DNA of 13,828 nucleotides from a virus (Duplodnaviria > Heunggongvirae > Uroviricota > Caudoviricetes > Autographiviridae), in IMG/VR virus record IMGVR_UViG_2660238008_000004, one strand, 5' to 3'. Positions 356-13,828 of the stretch are shown piece after piece. The position numbers and the translations under genes are program-made. The notes below the pieces were generated by a model. That model was not told where the DNA came from, searched no databases, and saw only the letters and a list, made by a program, of their open reading frames with translations. Each line of letters opens with the position of its first letter. The first letter of the stretch is position 1.

Positions 356-460
356 GGTGTCATCAATCGTTCGATTCTTGCTACCTGTCTGAGTGATTAC
401 TATCTGGTGTCATCAATTTAGGGTTTGACTAAATGCTACCATCAATGCAAAGATGCTACC
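356..460. repeat. Cluster of short direct repeats upstream of the serine recombinase gene: GGTGTCATCAAT at 356-367 and 406-417, related ACCATCAATGC at 438-448, ATGCTACC at 433-440 and 453-460
   Basis: Exact 12-mer repeated 50 bp apart with a third CATCAAT copy 30 bp further on, all within 140 bp of the recombinase start codon. The repeats are seen directly; a binding-site role is inference. Confidence 0.5.
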
Positions 461-491
461 GTTTTGTGATACCAGATGGGTGAGGTGAAGC

Positions 492-1067
492 ATGAGGACT
501 TTTATCTACTGCCGCGTTTCAACACGCGAGCAGGATACGCAGAATCAGGTGCTGGCTATTGAGCGTGCCGGGTACACGGTGCCTGAGAGCAGGGTAATCA
601 GCGAGGACATTTCCGGCAGCGTTCAGGCTATGCAGCGCCCTAAGTTTCGAGCGATGGTTGAGCATAAGCTGGAAGCGGGAGATCAGCTTGTCGTGCTGAA
701 ACTGGACAGGCTGGGGCGCGACAACATCGACGTGCAACAGACCATCGACATGCTGTTAGAACGCGGCGTGAAGGTGGTGTCTCTTGACCTGCCAGCGCGT
801 GATCTGACTTCATCTGAGGGCAAGCTAATCCGCCAGATGTTTGGAGCCTTTGCTGAGTTCGAGCGAAACCGTATCCGTGAGAGGACGCTTGACGGGCTGG
901 AGAAGGCGAAAGCCAATGGCGTTAAGCTGGGACGCAAGGAAGCCACCGACACCACTCAAAAGGTGCAGGAGCTGCGGAGTGAGGGGCTGTCTCAATCGAA
1001 GGTAGCTAAGCGTCTCGGCGTTAGCGTGAGCACCGTTAAACGCCACTGGAACAAGGGCGAGGGATGA
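492..1067 (+). CDS. Serine recombinase (resolvase/DNA invertase family), 191 aa
   Basis: N-terminal catalytic motif YCRVSTREQ with the nucleophilic serine, LDRLGRD motif, and C-terminal HTH (SQSKVAKRLGVSVSTVKRH); size typical of Hin/Gin/resolvase proteins. GAGGTG ribosome-binding site 5 nt upstream of ATG 492. Confidence 0.9.
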   Translation: MRTFIYCRVSTREQDTQNQVLAIERAGYTVPESRVISEDISGSVQAMQRPKFRAMVEHKLEAGDQLVVLKLDRLGRDNIDVQQTIDMLLERGVKVVSLDLPARDLTSSEGKLIRQMFGAFAEFERNRIRERTLDGLEKAKANGVKLGRKEATDTTQKVQELRSEGLSQSKVAKRLGVSVSTVKRHWNKGEG

Positions 1068-1133
1068 TGACCTACAAGCGAATGAGGTGCTACGACTGGC
1101 CGTTACTGGGCTGTGGGTGATGGATGACCTACA
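1066..1133. repeat. 11-bp direct repeat GATGACCTACA (1066-1076 and 1123-1133) overlapping the stop codon of the serine recombinase gene
   Basis: Exact 11-mer twice, 57 bp apart, unlikely by chance. Function unknown; possibly part of a recombination or regulatory site. Confidence 0.5.
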
Positions 1134-1770
1134 GCTTTTGTATTTATTTCAGAGGGTTATGTTATACGTAATATCATAACGATATGATTTATAATGTATT
1201 TTCGTGTTACTTGCGGCTCTCGATGTGAAGAGGTGGCGGGGCTTTAGCCGTGCCAGACGATGAACATCGAGATCAGATTGTGAATGTGAGTTATCACTGA
1301 ACAATTCGAGGGATGGGGCAGGGGAAGGGATCAAAGGCTGCGTTGTCCAATCACTAAGCTAGATTTGAAGCTGGTCAACACGTTAGTAGTATCTTTAAAG
1401 TTGCATTTGAAATACATGTACAGGAAAGGGTTCTTCCCTTACATCCCTTCTCCTAAATGTAGTTACGAGTGCTTCGCTCTCTTCACTTGCTGCGCTTCTC
1501 GCTATGCTCCAGCCCGCTCCATCGCCTTTGGCTCATTCCCGGTCTTCGCCCGCTGCTGATGCTCGGCGACTCTACGCAACCGTGCTTGCCGTGGCAGGCA
1601 ACGCGGCGGGGATGTGTAGTGGAACGGTACTCTTTATCGGTATTGTTAATTTAATCAATCATATACTGTTATCGGTAGGTATTCTTCAAAACATCTTCAT
1701 TCATTTCTGTATCGTTCAATCATCTTTCTTTTTCGTTTCCTTTCAGGTCTTAGCCGTCGGTCATTGGTCT

Positions 1771-1876
1771 TACTGCCTGCTGTGCTACTGCCAGCTATGG
1801 CACGCCGTCACGGTTACTGTCTGTCACCTGTCCTACTGCCTTCACTGTCTGCCGTCTGTCAGTCCTACGGTCTGCC
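1771..1876 (+). repeat. Iteron-like array: five same-orientation copies of YACTGYC (1771, 1786, 1815, 1834, 1844) plus related GTCTGCC/GTCTGTC copies (1847, 1854, 1870) in a pyrimidine-rich tract
   Basis: Repeats seen directly in a region with no credible ORF; followed by an AT-rich block at about 1930-2040. Interpretation as replication-origin iterons or another protein-binding array is inference. Confidence 0.45.
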
Positions 1877-2330
1877 ATCCGTCATCAGTTCGGCGCTCGC
1901 TTGTTTCGGCTGCGCCGCGCTCGCTCTGCGTATCTAGCGATACTATATCACTATAGACACTTTCATAATTATCTATTGATATCAGTAACTTATATTTTTA
2001 ATTTTAAAGGCTACTAATAAGGAGATATAGAGCATTACTTTCCCGCTTTTGACCGACAAAAATCGCGCTGTTAAGTATTGCCAGCCCAGGCTCAGTAAGG
2101 CTTAGCGAGGTTGTGGTTAAAAATTGACCTAATGAAGGTATCTACTAAGGAGAAAGAATAACTCCCGAAGCGCGACAAACTCTCCGATTTTGAAAGTGAC
2201 TATTAAGGCAGATAAAGACACTGACACTGTTGCCGACATGAAAACCTCTATAAGGGCAGAGAGTCTGCCGCACCTGTACCACCGCCCCAACCTGAGCTAA
2301 TACCTACCCCTATTTTCTGGAGATTTCACC

Positions 2331-4175
2331 ATGCCAACAAACCTACGCCGCCTGCTTGCGCAGGCTGCCGACGCTGACCCGCTCAATACTGCGGACGCAG
2401 ATGTACAGCAAATGATCGCTGACGGGGTTGTTATTCGACGTTCCAAGATATGCCCCGTAAAGCGTAAGCCCGTTAAGGCGGCATACAACACAAAGACCGA
2501 AGAGTTTTATTACAATGCAGATGGCTCCGCGATGACCTTGCGGGAGTGGCGAACGCTGCACGGTGTTCAACCGAAGAAACAAAAACAGCGCTCTGACGCT
2601 GGGTTGCGGCAAGTCATCCAGCCCGGCGACGCGATTCACTGCCGACGCGCTGAGATTGAGCAATGGCTAAATAAAAAGCCTGCTCGTTATGTTGAACCAC
2701 TGCCGCCAGATTTCCCCGGCGTTCGCGTAGACGATGCCGCATTGAAACCGCGCGAGCACGCCGTGCCGGAATCAACAACCGGACAGAATGCTTTTCTCAA
2801 AGCCTGCCGCGAGTTTCTCATTTGCGATGAGAAGACCATGCGCCGAATTAACAGGGGCATGGGTAAACTGGAAGCGATGCGTAACGCAGATTTCAAACGC
2901 TACGGAGACTCAGGGGAGTTTCGTCAATTTTGGTGTGGAGAGTCGAAGCCTACCGAAGATAGATTTAATAATACAAATCATCATTGTGACCCGAACGGCT
3001 TGGCTGCTTCGCCGTCTGTGCCGCCACTGAATACTACGCCGTATGAGTTCCGCCCCCTGGCTCGCTGTGACCGAAACGCACGCGTTAGCCTGCTGCCACC
3101 TGATGGGCTGGAGTGGAGGCCGGGGCAATTGTCTGTTGCTGATGCGATCTTTTCCCGTGGCAGTGATGTGCTTGCCGTTCTGCCTACTGGGTATGGCAAA
3201 AGCGCTGCCTTCACTTACCCATTGATTTATGAATCCCGCGCTGGCGTTGGCCTGTCTGTTATCGTTGTTCCTACTAATACCCTTAAGCGTCAGATTCTCC
3301 GCCAGTTGCGGGAGGCTGGCGTTCACGCTGTGGCATTTGGTGACAAGCTGCCGAGGCACCGCAATGCGCAACAACTGGCGGGGCTGGCTGCCGGGGCGTT
3401 CCGGGTTGCAGTCGTTTCGCCTGAACATCTGGTTCCGTCGAGTCAGGTTCTCGCGGCGCTGATGGCTTATGGCGTTGATCGTTTTATTATCGATGAGGCA
3501 CACACGGTCAAAGACTGGGATTTCCGCCCAGCTTACGACGCAATGCAGCACACACTACAGAATGCCTTTCCTTCGGCTCAACGCTGCGTGTTTACGGCTA
3601 CGCTGCTACGCGAAAATGAGCGCAGTTTAATGGAGTCGCTTGGCTGCCGTGGCGATTACGTAACATTCCGCGCTGATGTTGCTCGCGAGAATATCCAGTT
3701 GACGCCAGTCAGACAGTGCCGCGAACGTTTCCGAGCGGCTATTGGTCTGGTCGAGGCTCTGCCGAAAGAAGAGAAGACGCTTATTCTCGTCAATGACCTT
3801 AAAACGTTGCGGGCGTACCTGAAACTCTTGGGCGACCGGGCGCGGCCATATCACTCGAAGACGATGCACCTGAGCAACGAGGAACGCCACGCAAACGCTG
3901 AGTGGTTTGCCTCTACGCCGGGCGCGATTCTTATTGCTACTAAAGCCTTCGGGCTGGGTGCTGATGTTCCTGATATCCGTAACGTTGTCGTGACATACGT
4001 CCCCGATGATTTGCCTGATCTCGTTCAGATGATTGGACGAGCCGGGCGCGATGGGGAACCTGCCCGCGCTTTTCTGCTGTGGTCATCGCTGGCGCTGGAT
4101 GTTGCGCCTGATGAGCTTGCTTACTTCTACCGCCCTGAAAACTGCAACTGGCAGTACATCGCTAAATACCTCTGA
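2331..4175 (+). CDS. RecQ-family (SF2) DNA helicase core with an unrecognised ~270-aa N-terminal extension; lacks RQC/HRDC C-terminal domains; 614 aa
   Basis: Walker A LPTGYGKS preceded by a motif-0-like segment (RPGQLSVADAIF); motif Ia IVVPTNTLKRQ; motif II with the RecQ signature IIDEAHTVKDWDFRPAY; motif III FTATL; motif VI MIGRAGRDG about 40 aa from the C-terminus. GGAG ribosome-binding site 8 nt upstream of ATG 2331. Confidence 0.85.
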   Translation: MPTNLRRLLAQAADADPLNTADADVQQMIADGVVIRRSKICPVKRKPVKAAYNTKTEEFYYNADGSAMTLREWRTLHGVQPKKQKQRSDAGLRQVIQPGDAIHCRRAEIEQWLNKKPARYVEPLPPDFPGVRVDDAALKPREHAVPESTTGQNAFLKACREFLICDEKTMRRINRGMGKLEAMRNADFKRYGDSGEFRQFWCGESKPTEDRFNNTNHHCDPNGLAASPSVPPLNTTPYEFRPLARCDRNARVSLLPPDGLEWRPGQLSVADAIFSRGSDVLAVLPTGYGKSAAFTYPLIYESRAGVGLSVIVVPTNTLKRQILRQLREAGVHAVAFGDKLPRHRNAQQLAGLAAGAFRVAVVSPEHLVPSSQVLAALMAYGVDRFIIDEAHTVKDWDFRPAYDAMQHTLQNAFPSAQRCVFTATLLRENERSLMESLGCRGDYVTFRADVARENIQLTPVRQCRERFRAAIGLVEALPKEEKTLILVNDLKTLRAYLKLLGDRARPYHSKTMHLSNEERHANAEWFASTPGAILIATKAFGLGADVPDIRNVVVTYVPDDLPDLVQMIGRAGRDGEPARAFLLWSSLALDVAPDELAYFYRPENCNWQYIAKYL

Positions 4176-4212
4176 GTCGAAAGGCTCTCCCTGATTCTCT
4201 GGAGTTAATCAT

Positions 4213-4650
4213 ATGCCTGTTACCGAACATGCGCAGCGTCGTGCTGCGCGTGCGGATGCGCTCATCACCGCACAACTAGCTTTCGCCCTGAATGGGTACA
4301 ACTGGGATGAACTGGCCGAACCTCATCGCAAGACCCTTAATCGTGAGGCCATCATTCGCGAGGTATTTACACCGCTGGAGCGATATTGCCTGCTGAATGA
4401 TTGCGAGCCGTGGGAGTGTCTGGCCGCTGTACTGAACCGCATGAAAAGGCCGGATGGCTCGCGTCGCTGGAAAGCCGTCCGGTTGTCCGACCGGGTTTTC
4501 AATGGCCGGGTGCATCCGGTACGCAAGACTCCTGATGAAGTTTACGCCGCCATTGCCCGCCGTTTGTTTCTGCCGAAGCCCGTGCATCAAGAAGTGATTC
4601 AGCACATCCGTGCGCTAGGCCTGTTACCAGTTGGAGATAACCACCAATGA
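4213..4650 (+). CDS. Hypothetical protein, 145 aa
   Basis: ORF with GGAG ribosome-binding site 8 nt upstream; co-directional with the helicase and 37 bp downstream of it; no recognisable motif. Confidence 0.6.
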   Translation: MPVTEHAQRRAARADALITAQLAFALNGYNWDELAEPHRKTLNREAIIREVFTPLERYCLLNDCEPWECLAAVLNRMKRPDGSRRWKAVRLSDRVFNGRVHPVRKTPDEVYAAIARRLFLPKPVHQEVIQHIRALGLLPVGDNHQ

Positions 4651-4856
4651 CGAAATCTGAATTTGAAGCCGGAGCATGGGAACTAAAAACCCTGCTGCTG
4701 GGTGCGTTGACGCGCAGGCTTAAGGAGGACGAGGCGGGAGAGTCACGCATGGCTGCTGCCGAGTTGTCATCCTGCGTGAACTTCCTCAAGCAGAACGCCG
4801 CCGACTCGCCTGATACAACCTTTAACAACGTGTTCCCGGAGGATGACGACCAATGA
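4647..4856 (+). CDS. Hypothetical small protein, 69 aa
   Basis: Start ATG overlaps the upstream stop (ATGA at 4647-4650), indicating translational coupling; GGAG 11 nt upstream. Confidence 0.5.
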   Translation: MTKSEFEAGAWELKTLLLGALTRRLKEDEAGESRMAAAELSSCVNFLKQNAADSPDTTFNNVFPEDDDQ

Positions 4857-5029
4857 CCCCTGAACAGTTCCGGCAATGGTTCGCCACGCTGCCGGAGAAA
4901 TATCAACGTGTAGTCCGCTTCATGTACGACAACGCCCGCAAGTCGGGCACACACACCGCGTCAAGCCTTGCGCTGATTCACACGTTGGTTACTGACCAGA
5001 TCAAATTTGATTCGGAGTTTAATTTATGA
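4853..5029 (+). CDS. Hypothetical small protein, 58 aa (below the ORF-track cutoff; MTPEQFRQWFATLPEKYQRVVRF...)
   Basis: Hand translation from ATG 4853, which overlaps the upstream stop (ATGA); GGAGG 11 nt upstream; its stop TGA 5027-5029 overlaps the next start ATG 5026. It fills an otherwise unexplained gap in a tightly packed operon. Confidence 0.45.
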   Translation: MTPEQFRQWFATLPEKYQRVVRFMYDNARKSGTHTASSLALIHTLVTDQIKFDSEFNL

Positions 5030-5589
5030 CTTTGAGTATTACCGATATCCAGCGCATTAACGCGCTGGCTCATAAGCACCTAAAGAACAATGAAGAGATT
5101 GCAGCGGAGACAGGTCATACCCTGACCGATATTGATGCAGTAATCCGTGGCGCCTATGTCGATGACTTGGCCGAACATTGGAAAGACGATGCTGATATTA
5201 ATCTGGCGGAGTACAACGCCATCCGCAGCCGCTATAAGCCCGGCAAGCTGCACCGCGATACAGAGTTTATGATTGCCCGCGATATGCTGATTCGCCCTGA
5301 GACGGTGCTGGCTATCGCCCATTCCCGCTTTAGCAACGCCCACACGCACCCGGTACAGAAACCCTTGAAGGTGAAGCCAGCGAAGCCGAAAGTAGTGCGC
5401 AAGTTAGTGCCTACTGATTTAGATGAAATCCACAAGTTAGAGCGCTTCGGTTGGCCTGCTGCGGAGATCGCCGGGAAGCTGGGCGTCCCTGTTGAGGTCG
5501 TCGCGCATGTGCAACGCTGCCTGAGAAATCGTTGGTCGTACCCGGATACTCTGGAGTCTGTTAACTCCAAATTCAGCGAGGCTGAATGA
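5026..5589 (+). CDS. Hypothetical protein, 187 aa, possible C-terminal HTH
   Basis: ORF translationally coupled to its upstream neighbour; C-terminal segment WPAAEIAGKLGVPVEVVAHVQRCL looks HTH-like (weak). Confidence 0.6.
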   Translation: MTLSITDIQRINALAHKHLKNNEEIAAETGHTLTDIDAVIRGAYVDDLAEHWKDDADINLAEYNAIRSRYKPGKLHRDTEFMIARDMLIRPETVLAIAHSRFSNAHTHPVQKPLKVKPAKPKVVRKLVPTDLDEIHKLERFGWPAAEIAGKLGVPVEVVAHVQRCLRNRWSYPDTLESVNSKFSEAE

Positions 5590-5822
5590 TGGCAGAGAAC
5601 GAACCGCTGCACCCCGCCGTTAACCCTGATCTCTACGTGAACCTTGACGAACAACGCGAAGGATACGCTCCGATTGAATCACGGGGTTGGGATGTGCTGA
5701 CGCAGAACCTGACCGGGAAAGGTCGAACTGACCCCAGCCAAACACTTAACCAGAATCCGAAACAACGCCCGCGCGGCTCCGTTGGTGAGCGTCGTTGGCT
5801 TCGTAAACGTGGATTACTTTAA
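5586..5822 (+). CDS. Hypothetical small protein, 78 aa
   Basis: ATGA start/stop overlap with the upstream gene; basic C-terminus. Confidence 0.5.
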   Translation: MMAENEPLHPAVNPDLYVNLDEQREGYAPIESRGWDVLTQNLTGKGRTDPSQTLNQNPKQRPRGSVGERRWLRKRGLL

Positions 5823-5834
5823 CGAGGAATTACC

Positions 5835-6074
5835 ATGAGCAAAACTATCGTATTGCTGCCGCCCCGCAAGAATACAGACTGGGCTGCACAATTAAAGCTG
5901 ATTTCTGAATCGCTTGAGGTGAGTCAGGCAGACCTCGCCCACGCCTATCAGGTTGATCGTCGGGATATGGGTAAAGCGTATCACGGTGTGCGCAAACTGC
6001 CGGAACGTTGTGTGCCTGTTCATATGCTGTTGTTAGCGCAGGTACACGACTTTAGAGCATTATCAGGAGAGTAA
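5835..6074 (+). CDS. Hypothetical small protein, 79 aa
   Basis: ORF with GAGG ribosome-binding site upstream of ATG 5835; no recognisable motif. Confidence 0.5.
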   Translation: MSKTIVLLPPRKNTDWAAQLKLISESLEVSQADLAHAYQVDRRDMGKAYHGVRKLPERCVPVHMLLLAQVHDFRALSGE

Positions 6075-6077
6075 TTT

Positions 6078-6758
6078 ATGTCTGACCAGAATGTTAATCC
6101 GTACCTTTCCGGTGCTGATGCTGCATCGCAGCAATCGCCATACATGGCTGCACCTGTTGGAGTTGACAATGGAGCATCCCGCTTTAGCTCTGCGCCTGCT
6201 GATGCTGATTTCCTCCGTACCCAACCCGTTAACGGCAATGATGGCGGACAATGGAATAATGGCAATATCGCAAATCAGCAAGACCAGAACGCTGACAGCG
6301 CTGGGGCGCAAGTGGGCGACACACTGCAATTACAGGATGGCACCACTGTTGAGTTGACTCCTGAACTTCATGGGCTGATGGGGCAGTTTCACCAGTCTGT
6401 CGAAAGCCAGCTAGGTCAGGGTACAGTTGACGCGATGTTGCAGTACGCTGGCACGCTCGACGCCGGGACGCAATCAACCCTTGAACGGATGGTCATGTCT
6501 GGCGATCCCGCGCAGATGTCGCGTGCGGTTCAGTATCTGCAAGAGCGTATGGCTGGCGGTTCCATTACCGGTTACGTCCCGAACGGCCAGACTGCCGCGC
6601 AACCTGTCGGAATGTCACATGCTGAGTTTATAGCAGCGTATGACCAGCTTTCGCAGTGGGCGCAGCAATCAGGGTATGGCCCCGGCCATCGCCAGTACGA
6701 TGAACAATACCGCGCTCTGGTTGCGCAGCGCTCCGCTGGCAAACGTGCTGGTCGCTAA
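6078..6758 (+). CDS. Hypothetical protein, 226 aa, with low-complexity Q/N/G/A/S/D-rich N-terminal ~100 aa and a predicted helical C-terminal half
   Basis: AGGAG ribosome-binding site upstream of ATG 6078; the compositional bias is visible in the translation. Possible scaffold or other virion-associated protein given the capsid-like gene downstream (speculative). Confidence 0.6.
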   Translation: MSDQNVNPYLSGADAASQQSPYMAAPVGVDNGASRFSSAPADADFLRTQPVNGNDGGQWNNGNIANQQDQNADSAGAQVGDTLQLQDGTTVELTPELHGLMGQFHQSVESQLGQGTVDAMLQYAGTLDAGTQSTLERMVMSGDPAQMSRAVQYLQERMAGGSITGYVPNGQTAAQPVGMSHAEFIAAYDQLSQWAQQSGYGPGHRQYDEQYRALVAQRSAGKRAGR

Positions 6759-6897
6759 CGCCCAACTGTGGAATGCGCCCTGCAAGACCGAGTGCGCACC
6801 GACCCGGTACTACCACACCAATCTATGCGCATGAGTCCCCGCAAGCCGCATTCTGCGCGGCATCTGAAAGCCTGTTTTTAATTAACCGAGGTTCGTA

Positions 6898-7311
6898 ATG
6901 AGTACCTGTAATTTCCATGCTGTGGAGCGTGTCGCTGACGTGCGCCCGGATTTCGCCTTGCCGCTGGGTAGATGTGATCATGTTTACCCTGAGCGTGTGC
7001 CGCACGTTTTCAATCCAGACGAAGCGGTTTATATCGTTGCACGGTCTGCCACATCCGGCACCCGCACATCTGGCGTTAGCCGTGGGCTTTCCCCTGTGCT
7101 GCCGCCGAAGATGGCCGAGCGGATGCGCGAACGTGAACGGCACGAGAAGAATCGAGCCAGACCCCGCAAGGTAATCACTGAGGCGATACGCGCTGACATT
7201 ATCGTTCGCTCTGCAAAAGGCCAGAAGAATCGTTACATTGCAAGCAAGGTTGGCGTGTCTGAAACCTCTGTGCGGAAGGTGTTGAACATGGCGCGTATGA
7301 GTGCGCACTAA
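6898..7311 (+). CDS. Putative DNA-binding protein with C-terminal HTH, 137 aa
   Basis: C-terminal IRADIIVRSAKGQKNRYIASKVGVSETSVRKVL resembles a resolvase/sigma-type HTH; GAGG ribosome-binding site upstream; the gene is isolated by 139-bp and 198-bp intergenic gaps. Confidence 0.55.
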   Translation: MSTCNFHAVERVADVRPDFALPLGRCDHVYPERVPHVFNPDEAVYIVARSATSGTRTSGVSRGLSPVLPPKMAERMRERERHEKNRARPRKVITEAIRADIIVRSAKGQKNRYIASKVGVSETSVRKVLNMARMSAH

Positions 7312-7425
7312 TGCAAGGTAATACGTTCGCCTTACTTCACGCGCACTAACCCCTGAGAACCGCGCCAGCTCTGGCCTCAAAACGCCCATTTCGGGGCACC
7401 TCATCCCTTTAATCGATACCGTTCT

Positions 7426-7450
7426 GAATCCTGCCTCGGCGGGAGGATTC
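7426..7450. promoter_or_regulatory. Inverted repeat GAATCCTgCC-(tcggc)-GGgAGGATTC about 60 bp upstream of the capsid-like gene
   Basis: 7-bp perfect arms (GAATCCT/AGGATTC) extended to 9 of 10; no T-run follows, so not a classic intrinsic terminator; candidate operator or RNA hairpin. Confidence 0.3.
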
Positions 7451-7509
7451 CGCACGTCTGTGCCATGACGATGGCGCGGGCTTCATCAACCTACGTAGGA
7501 GTTTTGTTT

Positions 7510-8505
7510 ATGGCTGATACTTCGTACAGTCCCGATCTGTTTCGCCCACATTATGGCGGGGTGGAATCCGACAATGATATTCACATCGAGGCTTATGACC
7601 GGGATGTCCAGACCCGTTTAGAGTCCAAATCCGTATTTCTGGCCGAGGGGCTGTCTACATACAGGCCGCTGAAAGGCAGCAACCAATACCGCATTGATCG
7701 CCTGAGTGGTGATCTTGAGGTGAAGGGCAGAACCGCAGGGCAATCGCTGGAGCCTACCGCCGTTAAGTCGGACAAGTTGGTTATCTCTGTGGATACGCTG
7801 AGTTATATCCGCGTCCCGATTGACTATCAGGACGATTGGACAGCACCCACATTTCGCGCAGAGCTGAGCCGCAATATCGGCACTGCGCACGCTAAGTTCT
7901 ACGACGAAGCGCACACCATCCAGTTAATCAAAGCGACTGACTTTGTACCGCCGCCGACACTGCAACCAACGTTTAACCCGCTTACGAATAACGTTGTCTC
8001 GCTCGACCTGACAGCGGGGAGCGAAGAGGACGCCGCAAACGAATTGGTTCACGCCGTCAAAGCGGCTGCTAATCGCTTCCTCACTGAGAAAGATATTCCG
8101 GTGGCCGAGCTGGTGCTTCTCATTGACCCTGCATGGTTCAGCATCCTGATGGAACATAAGAAGCTGATGAACGTCCGTTACAGCCGGGATAGTGGCAACG
8201 ATTACGCATGGCGTCGCGTTGGCTATGTCGCTGGGGTGCGAGTCATTGAGCTGAACAGTTACCCGCAGGAAGTCATTACCGGGCATGAACTGGGCGCTGA
8301 TTATGACGTTACCGCAGAGGAAGCGATGACGAGGGCGACGCTGTTTAAACCTTCCTCTGTGCTGCTGACGGTCGAAGCGCAGAGCGTCATCAATCGCCAG
8401 TGGGATGATGAACGCGAAATGACAATGGTGATGGACTCATATCGCCTGTTCAACGTTGGGCTGCGTCGTCCTGACTGCGTTATCAATTTCCGACAAGCTG
8501 CATAA
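7510..8505 (+). CDS. Hypothetical protein, 332 aa; possible HK97-fold major capsid protein (weak resemblance to T7 gp10-type capsid proteins)
   Basis: Strong AGGAG ribosome-binding site 8 nt upstream of ATG 7510 (preferred over the track start 7465, which has none). By-eye similarity to recalled T7 gp10 segments (KLVISVDTLSYIRVPIDYQDD versus KVITIDGLLTADVLIYDIEDA; LIDPAWFSIL versus CDPDSYSAIL; C-terminal GLRRPDCVINF versus GGLRPEAAGAVVF). The product call is tentative. Confidence 0.4.
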   Translation: MADTSYSPDLFRPHYGGVESDNDIHIEAYDRDVQTRLESKSVFLAEGLSTYRPLKGSNQYRIDRLSGDLEVKGRTAGQSLEPTAVKSDKLVISVDTLSYIRVPIDYQDDWTAPTFRAELSRNIGTAHAKFYDEAHTIQLIKATDFVPPPTLQPTFNPLTNNVVSLDLTAGSEEDAANELVHAVKAAANRFLTEKDIPVAELVLLIDPAWFSILMEHKKLMNVRYSRDSGNDYAWRRVGYVAGVRVIELNSYPQEVITGHELGADYDVTAEEAMTRATLFKPSSVLLTVEAQSVINRQWDDEREMTMVMDSYRLFNVGLRRPDCVINFRQAA

Positions 8506-8521
8506 CTGGAGGGGCTGAGTC

Positions 8522-9031
8522 ATGGTTAATGATGCTTACGCCCCTGAGCTGCTGTGTTCCCTTTTCCTGTATGACCCGGTGACAGGCCGCCTGCACCATA
8601 AAGCTAACCGACGCCGGGTTAAGGCTGGCTCCTATGCTGACTCCACCCGGCGAGCTGATGGCTATCGTCAAGTTGCCCTGCGACTTGATGGCAAGCAGTA
8701 CCAGCTAAAAGCCCATCGCGTGGCGTGGATTCTTGCGCATGGCGCTATTCCTCATGGTAAGCAGATCGATCACATCAACGGTATCCGTGACGACAATCGC
8801 CTATGCAATCTGCGCTTGGTTACGCAGCGGGAAAACGACCAGAACCGACGCAAGGCAAGGGGGTATAGCTGGAATAAGGGCTGTAGAAAATGGGAGGCTT
8901 ACATACGCGTTGATGGTGTACTCCGTCACCTTGGCTTATTTACTACCGAAGTGGCGGCGCGTGCTGCCTATCTAAAAGCTAAAGCCAGATGCCATCCCTC
9001 AACGCCAGCCGATTTATTGCAGGCTGCCTAA
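8522..9031 (+). CDS. HNH endonuclease (HNH_3-type) with C-terminal AP2-like DNA-binding domain, 169 aa
   Basis: Motif HRVAWILAHGAIPHGKQIDHINGIRDDNRLCNLRLVTQRENDQN (H-N-H with conserved asparagines) followed by KWEAYIRVDGVLRHLGLFTTEVAARAAY (AP2-like); GGAGG ribosome-binding site upstream of ATG 8522. Confidence 0.85.
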   Translation: MVNDAYAPELLCSLFLYDPVTGRLHHKANRRRVKAGSYADSTRRADGYRQVALRLDGKQYQLKAHRVAWILAHGAIPHGKQIDHINGIRDDNRLCNLRLVTQRENDQNRRKARGYSWNKGCRKWEAYIRVDGVLRHLGLFTTEVAARAAYLKAKARCHPSTPADLLQAA

Positions 9032-9049
9032 TCCTCGGAGGTTCCATTA

Positions 9050-9475
9050 ATGGCTGATGAAAAGCCGATTAGAGCGCTGGCAGATGATGACCCACGCCGC
9101 CAGCGGTACGCTGAACTGTTGGCGCAGGCTGGCCGCATGTCTATTCCCCGGCTGCATCCGGGCGATGCTAATAGTGTTATGAGTCAGCTTGCGACGATGC
9201 TTGGCGCACCTGTCCCGATAGTCGGTGCTATGACTGAGCACGCCGCTGCATGGCGTGTCTGTCTGCTGGATCAAGGGCTTGGCGATCTTCTGGATGGCTT
9301 GAGTAAGCAGGTGCTGACCGTCTTCTTTCTGCTTTGCTGGAGAGATAGCGCCTTGCGATTGGCAGGTAAGCAAAAGGAACGGCTTACAGCGGCCAGCGAG
9401 GGTTTGACCATTGAGCAATACCGGGCAATGCACCCGGCTTACAGAGAGGATAAAGAAGATGATAACCACAATTAA
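9050..9475 (+). CDS. Hypothetical protein, 141 aa (small-terminase-like role is only a positional guess)
   Basis: GGAGG ribosome-binding site 8 nt upstream of ATG 9050; no recognisable motif. Confidence 0.5.
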   Translation: MADEKPIRALADDDPRRQRYAELLAQAGRMSIPRLHPGDANSVMSQLATMLGAPVPIVGAMTEHAAAWRVCLLDQGLGDLLDGLSKQVLTVFFLLCWRDSALRLAGKQKERLTAASEGLTIEQYRAMHPAYREDKEDDNHN

Positions 9476-9758
9476 ATTAAGGTGGCGGTACATCGAGCCG
9501 CCGCCAATGACTGGCACACTTGCTTACCTGAAACAGTGGGTAATAGATACCGGAGAGCCTGAGCTTGAAGCTGAGTTTCGTAAGCTGCTGGGGCTAATGC
9601 GCCGCAATGGTATCAGTGACGAACGCGTTAATGCGTTGGCCGATGAGCTTTATGCTTTGGTACGCCAGCGCCAGTGCGAAGAATATGAAGCCTGCAAGCG
9701 GGCTTCATCTGACAATGGAGACTTTGAATCATGGTTACACGGACAGACCAGCTATTAA
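9459..9758 (+). CDS. Hypothetical protein, about 99 aa
   Basis: Start chosen at ATG 9459 (GAGAGGA upstream; overlaps the preceding gene by 17 nt) rather than the track start 9411; start position is uncertain. Confidence 0.4.
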   Translation: MITTIKLRWRYIEPPPMTGTLAYLKQWVIDTGEPELEAEFRKLLGLMRRNGISDERVNALADELYALVRQRQCEEYEACKRASSDNGDFESWLHGQTSY

Positions 9759-10159
9759 GAAAAGCTATGCGGGGCTATCTGGAACACCTTGGCAATATGC
9801 CACTGGCGGAACGGATTACAAACGCTGCTGCATTCGAAGATGTTTATCGCTTCCTGTTGAATGGTTCCGGGCGGCTGGAGTTGCGCCGCGCTGATGTGGC
9901 CGCTGTCCGTGTCTTCCTGTGGAATTATCAATACCGACGCTGTGCGGTGACAGGTAAGCCGCTGCGCCTTGCGTCTGCCGTGCTGGATCACTGCCACCGA
10001 ACCGGGCGCGTGCGTGCTGTGGTGCATCGCTCTGCTAATGCTGCTGAGGGTGGCTATTATGTAGGGCGGGTGTGTGGACTCTCACCCGGTAGCATGAATT
10101 TCATGCTACCAGCCTACCGCCGCCACTACAAGGGGCTGGGTATTATTTATCCAGCATAA
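9731..10159 (+). CDS. Endonuclease VII-like protein, 142 aa
   Basis: Segment CAVTGKPL...LDHCHRTGRVRAVVHRSANAAEG parallels the T4 endonuclease VII core (C-x2-C ... DHDH ... VRGLLCNLCNAAEG) recalled from memory, with several zinc-ligand cysteines replaced by His/Ser. Start 9731 overlaps the upstream gene by 28 nt. Confidence 0.55.
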   Translation: MVTRTDQLLRKAMRGYLEHLGNMPLAERITNAAAFEDVYRFLLNGSGRLELRRADVAAVRVFLWNYQYRRCAVTGKPLRLASAVLDHCHRTGRVRAVVHRSANAAEGGYYVGRVCGLSPGSMNFMLPAYRRHYKGLGIIYPA

Positions 10160-10246
10160 CATTGGTCATGGCTCTATTTATTTTATTTTCATGAGGTTAC
10201 ATGTTGCTGTGGCTGCCTATTTACTTGCTCGTATTTAAAACAATTC

Positions 10247-10275
10247 TTGACGGATTGATGTAGATTGCGTAATCT
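10247..10275 (+). promoter_or_regulatory. Sigma70-type promoter: -35 TTGACG (10247-10252), 17-bp spacer, -10 TAATCT (10270-10275), with AT-rich upstream tract
   Basis: Near-consensus hexamers with ideal spacing, about 60 bp upstream of the small ORF at 10337; seen directly. Confidence 0.5.
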
Positions 10276-10336
10276 CCACTTAAAATAACTGCCTACAATG
10301 TGTGCAGGCCAATCACCGAAAAACAGGAGGTACAAT

Positions 10337-10492
10337 ATGACAAAGGCGAAAATCAGCCCCGTATCGACTGGTATGAGTAGGGATGCTCTGAATGCTCTTA
10401 TCAAGACAACGCGTACTGTAGCGCGTAAAAGTTCCAGAGAAACTGATGAGCGTTTAGCTGAATACAGTAAAGTACATGCCGCTTGCAATTGA
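10337..10492 (+). CDS. Small basic protein, 51 aa; candidate antitoxin/partner of the downstream toxin-like gene
   Basis: Strong AGGAGG ribosome-binding site 6 nt upstream of ATG 10337; overlaps the downstream ORF by 17 nt; does not resemble YafN/Phd-type antitoxins as I recall them. Confidence 0.5.
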   Translation: MTKAKISPVSTGMSRDALNALIKTTRTVARKSSRETDERLAEYSKVHAACN

Positions 10493-10949
10493 GTTTGATT
10501 GCTGTGAAAAACTCGCCAATGATGGCGAGTTTCTTCCTTTTTATCAGGAGTTCTGTCGCTATAAGCAACTAAGTGCAGAGCATTCCCGCCCCCGATATTC
10601 CATCCAAAAACTTTTTGCATCTATTTCGCTGCTCTTTGGCAGAGATAGGGACAATGTTGATGAAGATAAGCCGTATCATCAGAAAAGAGAAGGTTTAACA
10701 CATCTACATGTGAGGCAGGAAGACAGTGTCTGGGAGGATGACAATGGGCATCCACTGGTACAATGGAAATGTAAAAGTAACAGCTATTTGATATATTCGT
10801 ATTTTGTATTCTCAGGTACAAGGCACTACTATATTGTTGATTTTATTGATCATGATGCCCATGCAAATTGGGACAATCAAGAAGCAATACAAATGTGGAT
10901 AGATGAAGCTAAACAATATCGAGAACGTATAACAGAAGCGGCTGCATAG
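10476..10949 (+). CDS. YafO-like toxin candidate (type II toxin family), 157 aa
   Basis: By-eye similarity to E. coli YafO recalled from memory: EFCRYKQ versus DFISYKR, LFGRDRDNVDED versus IFGRDALYDDSF, HLHV versus HIHL, and C-terminal HDAHANWDNQEAIQMWIDEA versus EPHKLARDNNQMHKIGKMAE. Poor own ribosome-binding site, consistent with coupling to the upstream small ORF. Confidence 0.45.
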   Translation: MPLAIEFDCCEKLANDGEFLPFYQEFCRYKQLSAEHSRPRYSIQKLFASISLLFGRDRDNVDEDKPYHQKREGLTHLHVRQEDSVWEDDNGHPLVQWKCKSNSYLIYSYFVFSGTRHYYIVDFIDHDAHANWDNQEAIQMWIDEAKQYRERITEAAA

Positions 10950-10977
10950 GAAGCCGATATTATTCGGCTTCTTCTCT
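10950..10977 (+). terminator. Hairpin GAAGCCG-(8 nt loop)-CGGCTTC followed by TTCTCT, immediately after the toxin-like gene stop
   Basis: 7-bp stem seen directly; the U-tract is weak (TTCTCT). It lies between convergent genes, 8 bp from the minus-strand integrase stop. Confidence 0.35.
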
Positions 10978-10984
10978 AAGCATT

Positions 10985-12193
10985 TCATTTAATTAATTCA
11001 TAATCTATTAATTCAATATACCGGCGCATCTCTAAAGGGGATGCTGCGTTTTTTGAATATGTCTTAAAACTCTCAGTGCTACCTCGTTCGTGGCCTACAA
11101 GCAGAGCGATCCTATCTTCTGGCACTTGAGCACGGTCGAGTTGTTGCACAAACGCATGGCGGAGTGAGTGAAACACTTTTCTCTCTGCGGCAAGTTCGCC
11201 AAGAGCTTTACGCTTTGCCCGTGTGAACTGCTGCGTATGCCACGTTGAGCGCTTCCCATCCGCCCGGTCTGTAATTGACGCGTGATTGAACAGAAAACCG
11301 CTATGTGTGGTTTTGAGCAATGATTTCACGAGGGGGATTAGCTTGCTGTGTACTGGGACGATTCGTGCCGCGCTCTTGGTCTTCCCCTCGGTGATCTCAA
11401 AGCACAAAACGCCCTCGATGGTTTTAATACTGCTCTCACGCAGCGTACATATTTCATTGATCCGCATACCGCTGTAAGCACCAATAGCCGTTACCGCCTT
11501 CATCTCGTCATCAAGCAAGGTATAGACCTTTGCCAGCTCTCCCGGTGCGAAGACTTCATAGCTGACCTTGCTGCTTTTTGCTTCGAGTGCATGACCACGC
11601 CAAGGGTTATCCTGTGGCGCATCGTGATAGCGATTGCGTGCCAAATCCCATATCTGCGCCAGTGCACTGATATAGTTCTGGATGGTTTGGGGCGCTCGCT
11701 CAGTTTTGAGTTTATCTAACCAGCCTGTAACTATGGTTCGGTTAATATCTCGCAACTGAACATCTTTCTTTTTCAGGTGGGTTAACAGCACCTCTACGGC
11801 TTTATTGGTCTTGGATAGCGTGGTTAGCTTTCGCTTCTCGCTGTATTGAAGCAGGTACAAATCACGCATTTTTAGCAAGGAAGGGCAAGCCTGAATCGAT
11901 GCACCAAACGATGCGGGGGCTTCCTTGGCGTACACACTGACACGGCGTAGCTCATCAATGATTTGGTCTACAGATGAGCCGCCTTGTGGCTTTAGCAGAT
12001 TCCGTAAGCGAGTCCATTCCAGAGCAATAGCATCGCGAAACAATCGCGCTTGCCGTATGTCTCGTGTCCCTGTGCTTTTCATAAAGTAGCGTTTCCCTTG
12101 GAACAGGTGACGCATATAGCTGGGGATAGCTATCCGCACGAGGTAATTCCCGCAGGGATCTAAAACTAGATAACGATCTCTCTTGAAACTCAT
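10985..12193 (-). CDS. Tyrosine recombinase / phage-type integrase, 402 aa
   Basis: Catalytic residues in conserved context: GMRINEI (Arg), HSLRHAF (His-x-x-Arg), LVGHERGSTESFKTYSK (His and Tyr nucleophile); N-terminal arm-binding-like region (GKRYFMKSTGTRD). Its 5' end lies 134 bp from the tRNA fragment. Confidence 0.9.
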   Translation of the reverse strand: MSFKRDRYLVLDPCGNYLVRIAIPSYMRHLFQGKRYFMKSTGTRDIRQARLFRDAIALEWTRLRNLLKPQGGSSVDQIIDELRRVSVYAKEAPASFGASIQACPSLLKMRDLYLLQYSEKRKLTTLSKTNKAVEVLLTHLKKKDVQLRDINRTIVTGWLDKLKTERAPQTIQNYISALAQIWDLARNRYHDAPQDNPWRGHALEAKSSKVSYEVFAPGELAKVYTLLDDEMKAVTAIGAYSGMRINEICTLRESSIKTIEGVLCFEITEGKTKSAARIVPVHSKLIPLVKSLLKTTHSGFLFNHASITDRADGKRSTWHTQQFTRAKRKALGELAAERKVFHSLRHAFVQQLDRAQVPEDRIALLVGHERGSTESFKTYSKNAASPLEMRRYIELIDYELIK

Positions 12194-12326
12194 ACAAACC
12201 CCGGTTATGTTGTCGGGGCTTTTTCATGGCTAAACAGTCTGTGAAATGTGCCGGGGTTATGAGCTTTATTCTAGCTAGTTCAACGAGTTAACGATGATTA
12301 TTGAAGCAAGCTAAGCCGCCTAAACC

Positions 12327-12357
12327 CGTGCCGGTTCGAGTCCGGCCTTCGGCACCA
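12327..12357 (+). other. 3'-terminal fragment of a tRNA-Leu gene (T-arm, 3' acceptor strand, CCA), not a complete tRNA; candidate att core / direct repeat
   Basis: CGTGCCGGTTCGAGTCCGGCCTTCGGCACCA: T-stem GCCGG/CCGGC around loop TTCGAGT, then CTTCGGC-A-CCA. Matches the 3' end of E. coli tRNA-Leu(CAA) leuX as recalled. No D-arm or anticodon arm upstream; upstream sequence diverges at 12326. Confidence 0.75.
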
Positions 12358-12370
12358 AAAGTATGTAAAT

Positions 12371-12395
12371 AGACCTCAACTGAGGTCTTTTTTTA
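12371..12395 (+). terminator. Rho-independent terminator (AGACCTC-aact-GAGGTCT followed by TTTTTTT)
   Basis: Perfect 7-bp stem, 4-nt loop and 7-T run immediately downstream of the tRNA 3' fragment; consistent with the native tRNA terminator. Confidence 0.75.
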
Positions 12396-12479
12396 TGCCT
12401 GAAATCCGCGCCACACAAGGCTTTTCCAGCTTTTCTCCTCAACTGAAGTCAACCTGACTCAACCCACATCAACAGGCTT

Positions 12480-12531
12480 GTGAGTATACTAATGAGTATA
12501 TTTGCCGATTCGATATTGCTTGTATACTCAC
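12480..12531. promoter_or_regulatory. Repeats in the integrase upstream region: GTGAGTATAC (12480-12489), TGAGTATA (12493-12500) and inverted GTATACTCAC (12522-12531)
   Basis: 10-bp inverted repeat with an extra direct copy, 27-78 bp upstream of the integrase start; candidate integrase arm-type sites or operator. Seen directly; function inferred. Confidence 0.4.
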
Positions 12532-12557
12532 GAGATACCAATGGAAGGAAGACCATT

Positions 12558-13826
12558 ATGGCCCTAACGGATACTAAAGTTCGCTCTGCGAAACCTGAGG
12601 AGAAAGAGTATTCACTTGTTGACGGCGACGGCATGTCCTTACTTGTAAAACCTGGCGGTTCAAAGTATTGGCGATTTCGTTTCCGTTTTGGCGGTAAACA
12701 ACATTTGATGGCGTTCGGCGTTTACCCGGATGTTTCACTGGCGGATGCGCGGAAGAAAAGGGAAGAGGCCAGAAAGCTGGTAGCTGCTGGTATCGATCCT
12801 CGTGAGCATAAGCGTGCTGTGAAAGAAGAGCAGGCGAAAGAGATTATTACTTTCGAGAAGGTTGCCAGAGAGTGGCTCGTAACCAACCAAAAATGGTCGG
12901 AAGATCATGCTAATCGTGTAAAAAAGAGCCTGAAGGACAATATCTTCCCGGCAATTGGTGCTCGCAATATTGCTGAACTGGGCACCCGCGATCTGTTAAT
13001 TCCTATTAAAGCCGTGGAGAAATCCGGACGTCTTGAAGTGGCTTCCCGCCTTCAACAGCGCACCACGGCCATCATGCGTTATGCAGTGCAAAGCGGGTTA
13101 ATTGATTACAATCCGGCGCAAGAGATGGCGGGGGCGGTTGCTTCCAGTAATCGACAGCATCGTCCGGCGCTGGAGTTAAAGCGTATCCCGGAATTACTCC
13201 AGAAAATCGATGAATACACCGGCAGGCCACTAACCCGCTGGGCAACCGAACTTACTCTGCTTATTTTTATTCGATCCAGTGAGCTGCGTTTTGCTCGCTG
13301 GTCAGAAATCGATTTTGAAACGTCAATGTGGACCATCCCGCCTGAGCGAGAACCTATTCCCGGTGTGAAACATTCTCAGCGAGGTTCAAAGATGCGCACA
13401 CCTCATCTGGTGCCGCTTTCAAAGCAGGCGCTAGCGATCCTGAAGCAGATAAAACAGTTCTGTGGCGAACATGAACTGATTTTTATTGGCGATCACGATC
13501 CACGTAAGCCCATGAGCGAGAACACGGTAAACAGTGCGCTACGGGTGATGGGTTATGACACTAAGGTTGAAGTTTGCGGCCACGGCTTCCGCACAATGGC
13601 CTGTAGTTCGTTAATTGAGTCAGGACTATGGTCGAAGGATGCGGTGGAAAGGCAGATGAGCCATATGGAACGCAATTCGGTGAGGGCGGCGTATATCCAT
13701 AAAGCGGAACATCTGGATGAGCGTAAACTGATGTTGCAGTGGTGGGCTGATTTTCTGGATGCGAACAGAGAGAAGAGTATCAGTCCGTTTGAATATGCAA
13801 AGGTTAACAATCCGCTGAGAAGGTGA
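12558..13826 (+). CDS. P4-family tyrosine integrase, 422 aa; stop codon at 13824-13826, two bases before the window end
   Basis: N-terminus MALTDTKVRSAKPEEKEYSLVDGDGMSLLVKPGGSKYWRFRFRFGGKQ is the characteristic P4-type integrase arm-binding domain; C-terminal catalytic region (HGFRTMACS, RQMSHMERNSVRAAY). Start chosen at ATG 12558 with AAGGAAG ribosome-binding site rather than track start 12480. Orientation matches the tRNA fragment, as in tRNA-then-int islands. Confidence 0.9.
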   Translation: MALTDTKVRSAKPEEKEYSLVDGDGMSLLVKPGGSKYWRFRFRFGGKQHLMAFGVYPDVSLADARKKREEARKLVAAGIDPREHKRAVKEEQAKEIITFEKVAREWLVTNQKWSEDHANRVKKSLKDNIFPAIGARNIAELGTRDLLIPIKAVEKSGRLEVASRLQQRTTAIMRYAVQSGLIDYNPAQEMAGAVASSNRQHRPALELKRIPELLQKIDEYTGRPLTRWATELTLLIFIRSSELRFARWSEIDFETSMWTIPPEREPIPGVKHSQRGSKMRTPHLVPLSKQALAILKQIKQFCGEHELIFIGDHDPRKPMSENTVNSALRVMGYDTKVEVCGHGFRTMACSSLIESGLWSKDAVERQMSHMERNSVRAAYIHKAEHLDERKLMLQWWADFLDANREKSISPFEYAKVNNPLRR

Positions 13827-13828
13827 CA

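Follow-up and report, generated by a model that had tools for sequence, protein, structure and literature searches.

Background

Two tyrosine integrase genes that diverge from a single 31-nt piece of a tRNA-Leu gene raise the question of whether they belong to one mobile element or to two that have come to lie back to back, and of what became of the rest of the tRNA gene. The arrangement occurs in a 13,828-nt stretch of DNA held as a viral record (IMG/VR IMGVR_UViG_2660238008_000004), which was analyzed at its full length and is referred to here as the window. We conclude that two independent integrative elements, arrayed in tandem at leuX, very probably meet in this region: a left element (LE) that ends at the seam and a P4-type island that begins there. 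Stacked insertion at leuX is a well-known kind of tandem insertion, and since such arrays have already been described for tRNA genes, this tRNA-Leu among them, the finding is an ordinary one. One 31-nt seam for two unrelated integrases is a textbook case of tRNA genes gathering mobile elements. The seam also records the gain or loss of a 14.6 kb element on an otherwise identical chromosome and aids in setting correct island boundaries at leuX, with no concept changed.

Organization of the seam

The first-pass annotation had described two integrases diverging from one tRNA-Leu 3' fragment in a window that holds no intact tRNA, and both observations hold. The two open reading frames are intact and read away from the fragment, with gaps of 133 nt between the left integrase start and the fragment and of 200 nt between the fragment and the right integrase start. 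A full-length integrase with recognizable catalytic residues stands beside the att site on either side of the core. The fragment itself (positions 12327-12357, plus strand), CGTGCCGGTTCGAGTCCGGCCTTCGGCACCA, matches exactly the last 31 nt of the ahr-adjacent annotated tRNA-Leu genes of E. coli and constitutes the direct repeat, or core. Its last 20 nt (12338-12357, plus strand) are identical to GAGTCCGGCCTTCGGCACCA, annotated in the phage P4 record X51522 (4078-4097) as 'attP (phage attachment site core sequence)'. These 20 nt occur once in the window, where the chance expectation is 0.00 (200 shuffles, ≤3 mismatches tolerated). Because the full 20-bp P4 core lies inside it, the fragment is at once attR of LE and the attL core of the right island. 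That it is not part of a complete tRNA is indicated by ARAGORN, which returned no tRNA in the window, and by folding around the fragment, which gave T-arm and terminator hairpins alone and no cloverleaf. An Rfam scan of the window likewise gave no match at E≤1, and the leuX 5' body was missing from both strands of the window.

The right integrase (12558-13826, plus strand) is an intact protein of 422 aa when read from its ATG, the mechanically called open reading frame starting upstream at a GTG at 12480. It was correctly called P4-type (the IntS/CP4-57-like class) at the outset: its residues 1-409 (97% of its length) align with phage P4 Int at 57.4% identity, and it carries the three domains Arm-DNA-bind_3 (5e-29), Phage_int_M (3.7e-28) and Phage_integrase (4e-20), all above the Pfam cut-offs. 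It also points away from a tRNA 3' core. The intervening left arm of the P4-type island (12358-12557, plus strand) is found 100% identical 3' of an intact leuX in contigs L122, L123, L127 and L129. It includes a terminator-like hairpin with a T-run (12371-12395, plus strand), identified by a terminator scan, and a 13-nt inverted repeat 5' of the integrase start (12477-12489 and 12522-12534), identified by a repeat search.

The left integrase (10985-12193, minus strand) is an intact protein of 402 aa that matches Phage_integrase (2.7e-16) and DUF6538 (1.1e-6) in Pfam and the PHROG 1 integrases (1.2e-35), and the catalytic R/K/HxxR/H/Y residues are discernible by eye in its translation. The label of lambda-type initially given to it is not supported: no homology to lambda Int beyond the common catalytic fold was detected, and its N-terminus matches DUF6538 rather than a lambda arm-binding domain. 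A tblastn search of 50,697 phage records yielded 14 matching records, phage lambda not among them, with nothing above 28% identity (the best match, over 69% of the protein); the best matching phages were those of Nitratiruptor, Fusobacterium and Ralstonia. Between the integrase start and the core, in place of the tRNA body, lies the right arm of LE (12194-12326), which was kept together with the integrase in 10 of the 11 LE-bearing loci compared and was missing from empty-site loci.

Extent of the left element

The window opens with the end of an IS1 (1-127, minus strand; IRL and the start of insA, 100% identity to IS1), the remainder of which lies outside. Window positions 1-129 agree at every base with the IS1 of phage P1 records, the terminal inverted repeat ...GCAGCATCACC stops at 127, and the first LE bases (128-136) read TGAGCAGTG. 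LE therefore occupies 128-12326 in the window, and its intact copies measure 14,625 bp between repeats. The IS1 interrupts the left cargo region of the element, leaving its leftmost ~2.4 kb and attL outside the window. No exact IS1/LE junction was found among 185,579 species-representative genomes or in complete RefSeq E. coli genomes, in which the best match begins exactly at window position 128.

A twin contig, L006, supplies the missing end. Its positions 7798-21498 correspond to window 128-13828 at 99.993% identity (1 mismatch in 13,701 nt), and it is free of the IS1, its sequence being continuous across the equivalent point (7797/7798), which lies ~2.4 kb from its leuX. This contig carries an intact leuX at 5318-5402 and copies of the repeat at 5372 and 19997. 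The first-pass annotation had predicted an intact tRNA-Leu with the matching repeat at the far end of the left element, and this is what L006 contains: leuX lies 14,625 bp leftward and ends in the same 31-nt repeat (32 nt with the following A). When extended loci were searched for a complete tRNA-Leu ending in the same ~31 nt, the repeat was found twice without mismatch, inside leuX and again at the junction, in L001, L006, L007, L008 and L011, and E. coli LR-33 shows the same pair. In L001, L003, L005-L008 and L011 the same LE is bordered by an intact leuX on one side and by the fragment on the other. In OkiPb01685, S1, L009, L010 and L012 the far-end leuX is intact and the right junction is the same, with the exact second copy missing. 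As the left end of LE lies beyond the IS1 in the genome under study, its far-end repeat is extrapolated from these near-identical contigs.

Empty sites and proposed course of insertion

Loci without LE were found on the same background. In L122, L123, L127 and L129, ahr and an intact leuX are followed by window 12327-13828 at 1502/1502 identity, which sets in precisely where the 31-nt repeat does (12327), and in the left flank they share 99.93-99.98% identity with the LE-bearing L006 across 5.4 kb. These four contigs are precise empty sites (attB) for LE, joining leuX exactly to 12327. Together with the second exact copy of the repeat in the intact leuX, they bear out the suggestion that the fragment is an att junction, and they display directly the native order of tRNA-Leu followed by integrase in which the tRNA body was thought to have been replaced by the left element.

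We propose the following course of events. A P4-type island would have resided directly 3' of leuX, as in phage P4, with its own arm supplying the terminator-like hairpin. The LE, of ~14.6 kb, would then have been integrated into leuX by its own, unrelated tyrosine integrase, through recombination inside the 31-32-nt stretch that its attP has in common with the tRNA at the T-arm and acceptor end; the crossover was probably in the T-loop region. Sublocation rules for integration at tRNA genes were reportedly set out by Williams in 2002. At attL, the 5' body of the tRNA is joined to the element-borne 3' end, giving the intact leuX at the far left, and at attR the second 3'-end copy, beside the LE integrase and still joined to the P4-type island, is the 31-nt fragment. 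Both integrases are probably still active. Searches of IMG/VR and of JGI metagenome contigs revealed no excised circular form of LE: the predicted attP junction (...CCTAAACC, the 31-nt core, AGTCACTAAAT...) gave 0 exact matches in each, a weak negative.

A plasmid origin of the window was considered and rejected, there being no high-identity plasmid match beyond IS1; the sole long match in the plasmid comparison was to a 4.9 Mb record of chromosome-like length.

Order of arrival and alternative explanations

The left element had initially been proposed to have inserted ahead of an existing integrase island. Insertion at leuX is supported by the comparison of L006 with the empty sites; either order of arrival fits the structure. 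Structure alone does not set the order, because the fragment holds the complete 20-bp P4 core. LE could conversely have been resident first, with the P4-type/BREX island entering the core copy at its attR later: the whole P4 att core would have been available there, a second element can enter either restored core of a tandem array (PMC7192596), and both orders yield exactly the structure observed. We nevertheless regard this reverse order as improbable. The same lineage has leuX, the P4 integrase and brxA without LE, with flanks that are 99.93-100% identical on both sides, and given such LE-free alleles the reverse order also requires a later, precise excision of LE. In addition, LE copies are 99.5-99.99% identical among hosts with differing right-hand neighbors, which fits a recent spread of LE. 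Arrival of LE after the P4-type island is thus the order that we infer.

Very unlikely, in our judgment, is that both integrases and the fragment form a single two-recombinase module that moves as a unit. The pair does recur: nine complete E. coli genomes cover both genes, a divergent P4-type integrase stands alongside the LE-type integrase in 5 of the 13 species representatives that carry the latter, and at least ten large E. coli plasmids carry integrase, fragment, P4 integrase and BREX together as one block at 85% identity. Each half is found alone at the same site, however. LE occupies leuX without a P4-type integrase alongside in L007 and L009-L012, and the same P4-type integrase lies next to leuX in public contigs from which LE is absent. 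LR-33, OkiPb01685 and S1 each carry LE with a different P4-type integrase on the right. Moreover, the identities of the LE-type and P4-type integrases are uncorrelated across loci (e.g. 97% vs 55%), so that the divergence of the two genes is uncoupled, and the boundary between the halves is exactly the tRNA repeat. Recurrence of the pair is accounted for by the frequency of P4-type integrases beside tRNA-Leu among the complete E. coli genomes listed. Part of the query was matched by 4,596 of 5,426 complete E. coli genomes, and the half-length matches among those listed were all tRNA-Leu plus integrase; with such pairs this common, insertion at leuX can be expected to bring an element next to a P4-type integrase in many cases. 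The single-module reading was accordingly rejected, on the grounds of presence/absence and of uncoupled divergence.

Least probable of all is a reading in which the fragment was left behind when an IS1-mediated or other illegitimate deletion destroyed a tRNA gene, rather than by site-specific recombination. IS1 is indeed abundant in the lineage, with one copy at window 1-127 and a second truncating brxB in sister contigs. This reading is contradicted, however, as the identical junction occurs in many genomes without a nearby IS1, a second exact copy of the repeat lies inside an intact leuX 14.6 kb away, and the LE-free alleles restore the gene precisely.

The left element as a candidate satellite of bonnellviruses

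The gene content of LE suggests what kind of element it may be. It encodes a major capsid protein of the Autographiviridae type (7510-8505, plus strand; PHROG 267 major head protein, 5.8e-70) that is 56% identical, over its full length, to the capsid protein of Bonnellvirus forsur, the best among the matches listed, which sample the ranking of 788 matching phage records from best to weakest. A 69-aa open reading frame (4647-4856, plus strand) shows weak similarity to T7-type small terminases (TerS), with a weak BLASTP match to forsur TerS (E 4e-5, 42% identity over 45 aa) and a Pfam match to DNA_Packaging_2 at E 0.0026, below the curated cut-off. A non-coding segment of ~230 bp (1765-1994, plus strand) is common to LE and lytic bonnellviruses by nucleotide match: 15 Bonnellvirus records match it at 87-98% identity and no other phages do, and its phage counterpart separates the last late gene from the first early one. 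This segment is a candidate cis-acting site, possibly for packaging, replication or transcription. The capsid protein, the TerS-like open reading frame and an open reading frame overlapping the shared DNA were the only matches of LE proteins to phage forsur. No portal, TerL, tail, polymerase, protease, head-tail connector or AlpA was detected in LE by Pfam, PHROG or the comparison with forsur.

A T7-type promoter at the end of the segment (...ATCACTATAGACAC) was considered and found unsupported, as CACTATAG occurs once only on the forsur coding strand and no repeated promoter-like 12-mer was found in the forsur genome. The record of phage glasur ends inside the shared segment, which is at most suggestive of a terminal repeat; Bonnellvirus records are circularly permuted assemblies, and the Bonnellvirus literature searched reported no genome termini.

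Judged by its sequence, LE may be an undescribed satellite of lytic T7-like phages, a reading that these features fit but do not prove. In its full form this proposal is tentative, and we give it a real but somewhat less than even chance: LE would be an integrative satellite of strictly lytic bonnellviruses that provides the capsid protein, and perhaps a small terminase too, from its own genes, uses a copy of the helper's terminal non-coding DNA as a packaging, replication or transcription signal and rides in helper-derived particles. At ~14.6-14.7 kb it is about one third the size of the 42 kb candidate helper. LE is very common and near-identical across hosts, with exchangeable defense cargo; its integrase was found in 13 species representatives and spans at least nine enterobacterial genera, and for its resolvase the assembly collection lists 2,217 blocks. 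We found no paper on satellites of Autographiviridae in enterobacteria. If the proposal is true, enterobacterial satellite biology would be extended to virulent podoviruses, and LE could affect the performance of bonnellviruses in phage therapy.

Comparison with known systems

As a possible satellite, LE resembles the capsid-forming cf-PICIs and the SaPI-type satellites in its terminal integrase, in its size of about one third that of the candidate helper, in encoding a capsid protein, an HNH nuclease and possibly a small terminase, and in the variability of its defense cargo. It differs from them in that its capsid protein and the DNA it shares with phages lead to bonnellviruses, which are strictly lytic and T7-like, and not to temperate siphoviruses.

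The right island resembles phage P4 and the P4-type islands of leuX in 57% Int identity, the three-domain architecture, the target gene, the 20-bp core and the layout of core followed by integrase. Its cargo sets it apart from phage P4, as the island carries BREX defense genes in sister contigs rather than the replication and capsid-size genes of P4. Eight public contigs encode exactly the right-integrase protein, with brxA and brxB after it. In sister contigs brxB is cut by an IS1, as a result of which the right island there is probably immobilized.

Islands that integrated one after another are already on record for the ahr-adjacent tRNA-Leu of E. coli (bioRxiv 10.1101/2025.09.15.676423, section 11). 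The islands in that study use the same site, with repeats in the tRNA and at the border of the older, often immobilized island; their cargo includes BREX, and satellite-like behavior was proposed by the authors. Their repeats measure 16-20 nt, and they encode AlpA-like excisionases and HUH Rep proteins. In LE, by contrast, the repeat is 31-32 nt long, the integrase is of the DUF6538 type, and a RecQ-like helicase and a capsid protein are encoded; neither AlpA nor HUH was matched among the 19 LE open reading frames scanned.

Arrays of this kind can build up since each integration leaves a restored core at either end of the element (PMC7192596). The arrays cataloged with Islander/TIGER (PMC7192596) share with the present locus adjacent islands, a tRNA 3' fragment between them and, for each island, a tyrosine integrase beside its att site. 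There is no difference in principle; here the inner core serves two unrelated integrases, with an identity block at the seam of 31-32 nt for LE against a core of 20 nt for the P4-type island.

tRNA fragment and flanking integrases

Neither ARAGORN nor Rfam (E ≤ 1) detected a tRNA gene in the window, and the 5' body of leuX was not found on either strand. The window instead carries, as the first-pass annotation had stated, a single tRNA-Leu 3' fragment at 12327-12357, CGTGCCGGTTCGAGTCCGGCCTTCGGCACCA, which is the same as the last 31 nt of the ahr-adjacent tRNA-Leu in annotated E. coli genomes. The last 20 nt of this fragment occur once in the window, where none would be expected by chance, even with three mismatches. 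A terminator-like hairpin with a T-run (12371-12395) lies 3' of the fragment, and RNA folding of the stretch returned only a T-arm hairpin and the terminator hairpin. The terminator stem, CCTCAACTGAGGTC (12374-12387), is repeated with one mismatch 63 nt downstream (12437-12450), and a 13-nt inverted repeat (12477-12489 and 12522-12534) flanks the region just upstream of the P4-type integrase ATG. These short repeats between the fragment and the integrase start may serve as arm sites for the integrase or have a regulatory role.

Domain matches and coordinates agree with the earlier description of two divergent tyrosine integrases reading away from the fragment, with start codons 133 nt (left) and 200 nt (right) from it. 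The catalytic R, K, HxxR, H and Y are discernible by eye in both translations. The right integrase, 422 aa encoded at 12558-13826 on the plus strand, shows the three-domain Pfam architecture of P4-type integrases and is 57.4% identical to P4 Int over nearly its full length. A mechanical open reading frame begins at GTG 12480, and a start at the ATG at 12558 yields the 422-aa product predicted in public contigs. The integrase of the left element (LE, 128-12326) is a tyrosine recombinase on the minus strand (10985-12193) with a Pfam Phage_integrase domain (2.7e-16) and an N-terminal DUF6538. It is called as 402 aa (start at 12193) or 384 aa (internal Met), depending on the assembly; the longer form is favored because the DUF6538 match begins at residue 8. 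Its designation as "lambda-type" was not upheld, as no close phage relative was found in 50,697 phage records (best identity 28%) and phage lambda is absent from the 14 records that matched.

LE is bounded by a direct repeat of leuX

The first-pass annotation predicted that an intact tRNA-Leu with a matching repeat would lie at the far end of the left element. In the window, the left end of LE would lie beyond an IS1, and this arrangement was seen in L006, an IS1-free metagenome assembly contig that differs from window 128-13828 by a single mismatch in 13,701 nt. L006 has an intact leuX at 5318-5402 and exactly two 31-nt copies, one inside the tRNA (5372) and one at the junction (19997), 14,625 bp apart; the repeat is 32 nt when the following A is counted. 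Two exact 31-nt copies were likewise found in four further compared loci (L001, L007, L008 and L011). In E. coli LR-33, OkiPb01685 and S1, LE lies between an intact, ahr-adjacent leuX and the right-island junction, and the P4-type integrase to its right differs in each strain.

Strains without the left element were compared as had been suggested. Many E. coli chromosomes match window 12327-13828 at 96-98% and carry this integrase after a complete tRNA-Leu; in MS20657, one such case, BREX genes come next. An exact look-up of the 422-aa protein identified four contigs as LE-free alleles (L122, L123, L127 and L129). In each, ahr and an intact leuX precede a stretch that agrees with window 12327-13828 at 1502/1502 positions, with identity beginning precisely at base 1 of the 31-nt repeat, so that the fragment, terminator and P4-type integrase are indeed the native leuX-then-int arrangement. 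Over the 5.4-kb left flank, the LE-free contigs are 99.93-99.98% identical to L006. On the right, LE-bearing L124 and L128 are 99.94-99.97% identical to LE-free L122 over approximately 3.2 kb that start at the leuX 3' end, span the integrase and reach brxB. The occupied and empty states therefore differ essentially by LE alone. The fragment is an att junction, as had been proposed: direct repeats of 31-32 nt bound LE on either side, precise empty sites exist, and each att-proximal position is occupied by an integrase gene.

The annotated 20-bp attP core of phage P4, GAGTCCGGCCTTCGGCACCA, corresponds to window 12338-12357. Phage P4, like the right island, has its core first and then an integrase reading away. 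From this layout, the sequence just past the tRNA end, including the terminator-like hairpin, would be island DNA, as expected for the P4 family.

Integration model and order of arrival

Upon integration of tyrosine-integrase elements, the core is restored at both ends and either copy can be reused, giving rise to tandem arrays (PMC7192596). We propose that the last 31-32 nt of leuX were present in the LE attP. Recombination between this attP and leuX would have produced a hybrid yet intact tRNA gene at the left (attL), leaving a copy of the 3' end at the right (attR), still attached to the P4-type island. The identity block begins just before the T-stem, which suggests a crossover in the T-loop region. 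Since the fragment contains the full P4 core, it would serve as both the LE attR and the attL core of the right island.

The observation is confirmed, and the reading of the left element as an insertion into the tRNA gene beside an integrase island is supported, subject to caveats on the label of the left integrase, on insertion order and on the left end of LE, which lies outside the window. The same structure results whichever element came first, so a resident LE joined later by the P4-type island would look identical. We consider that reverse order improbable, given that LE is present or absent on an identical background and that LE copies across hosts are 99.5-99.99% identical. For these reasons, later arrival of LE is the simpler reading.

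LE and the P4-type island are independent elements. LE occurs at leuX without a P4-type integrase on its right in five compared loci (L007 and L009-L012), some of which have the gene context argF-rraB-miaE in contrast to lptF/lptG-yjgR-ahr of the E. coli loci. LE-type integrases were found in 13 species representatives, in the genera Kluyvera, Enterobacter, Kosakonia, Trabulsiella, Pantoea, Dryocola, Sodalis, Atlantibacter and Citrobacter, and a divergent P4-type integrase lies beside them in five of the 13. Identities to the window are uncoupled between the two genes (97% versus 55% in one, 65% versus 75% in another). The recurrent pairing is explained by P4-type integrases often adjoining leuX. 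Part of the query was matched by 4,596 of 5,426 complete E. coli genomes, and every one of the half-length matches listed consisted of tRNA-Leu plus integrase.

Plasmid pX14-3-NDM (14784-17675) and at least 10 other large E. coli plasmids carry an 85%-identical block in which an LE-like integrase, an exact copy of the 31-nt leuX fragment and a P4-type integrase accompany a complete BREX-1 system, with IS elements at its integrase end. The block appears to derive from a chromosomal tandem-island seam that was acquired by plasmids.

IS1 insertions

The left edge of the window is an IS1 end (1-127). The equivalent point in L006 (7797/7798) falls between genes, 2,395 bp to the right of leuX, and the cargo region around it differs from one LE copy to another. 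The IS1/LE junction is absent from complete RefSeq E. coli genomes, an exact scan of species-representative genomes gave no hit, and outside the IS1 the window has no high-identity plasmid match. Four sister contigs (L124-L126 and L128) are identical or near-identical to the window, L128 matching 2558-13828 at 100%, and show or imply that a second IS1, oriented like the one in the window, interrupts brxB. In L124, this IS1 (12962-13714) truncates brxB approximately 1.7 kb past the window's right edge, and gntP-uxuAB follow directly. If the source genome shares this insertion, the right island would be without its distal end and immobile; two direct IS1 copies may then enclose a stretch of truncated LE, the P4-type integrase, brxA and truncated brxB, in which the BREX island is beheaded.

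LE as a candidate phage satellite

LE encodes a resolvase, a RecQ-like DEAD-box helicase, a run of small unknown ORFs, a major capsid protein, an HNH nuclease, an endonuclease-VII-like protein, a YafO toxin module and the integrase. The capsid protein (7510-8505) ranks the capsid of Bonnellvirus forsur first among all phage records (56% identity, full length), versus approximately 36-44% for other Autographiviridae. A 69-aa ORF (4647-4856) weakly resembles the N-terminal part of forsur TerS (pairwise E 4e-5) and matches T7-type DNA_Packaging_2 below the cut-off. A non-coding segment of approximately 230 bp (1765-1994) shares 87-98% identity with 15 Bonnellvirus genomes, with no match in the phage collection outside Bonnellvirus, and its similarity to the phage copies is on a par with that among some LE variants. 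In the phages it separates the last late gene from the first early gene, a position at which, by analogy with T7-like genomes, the bonnellvirus genome would have its ends. The idea of a T7-type promoter in this segment found no support when tested.

No portal, large terminase, tail, RNA polymerase or DNA polymerase gene was found in LE, which is approximately 35% the size of the 42-kb phage genome. LE is a candidate satellite of the lytic, T7-like bonnellviruses, a tentative assignment that we place slightly short of an even chance. A literature search found no paper on such a bonnellvirus satellite. Variable defense hot spots are typical of satellites, and LE has two such cargo slots. The left slot (leuX to resolvase) holds AbiJ, DUF3800, an Eco29kI restriction-modification pair or Rap1a, depending on the copy, and the right slot (EndoVII-like gene to integrase; 10337-10949) is occupied by the YafO module in the window and, in strain S1, by a TIR (ThsB-like) gene.

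A 196-bp non-coding sequence upstream of the LE resolvase (174-369) has a 98%-identical counterpart at leuX in many E. coli genomes without the rest of LE (e.g., ST648; contig L130, 5001-5196), where it lies beside another small recombinase and a truncated P4-type integrase. Within it, a 44-nt piece (177-220) matches phage forsur just after the endolysin gene.

Comparison with known systems

The point worth pursuing is the nature of LE. The tandem arrangement at leuX is ordinary and already described: tandem arrays at tRNA genes are a recognized feature of island mapping (PMC7192596), and a 2025 preprint reports sequential integration at the same ahr-adjacent tRNA-Leu, with direct repeats that abut an older immobilized island and BREX among the cargo (10.1101/2025.09.15.676423). 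Phage P4 uses leuX as well, as does the right island.
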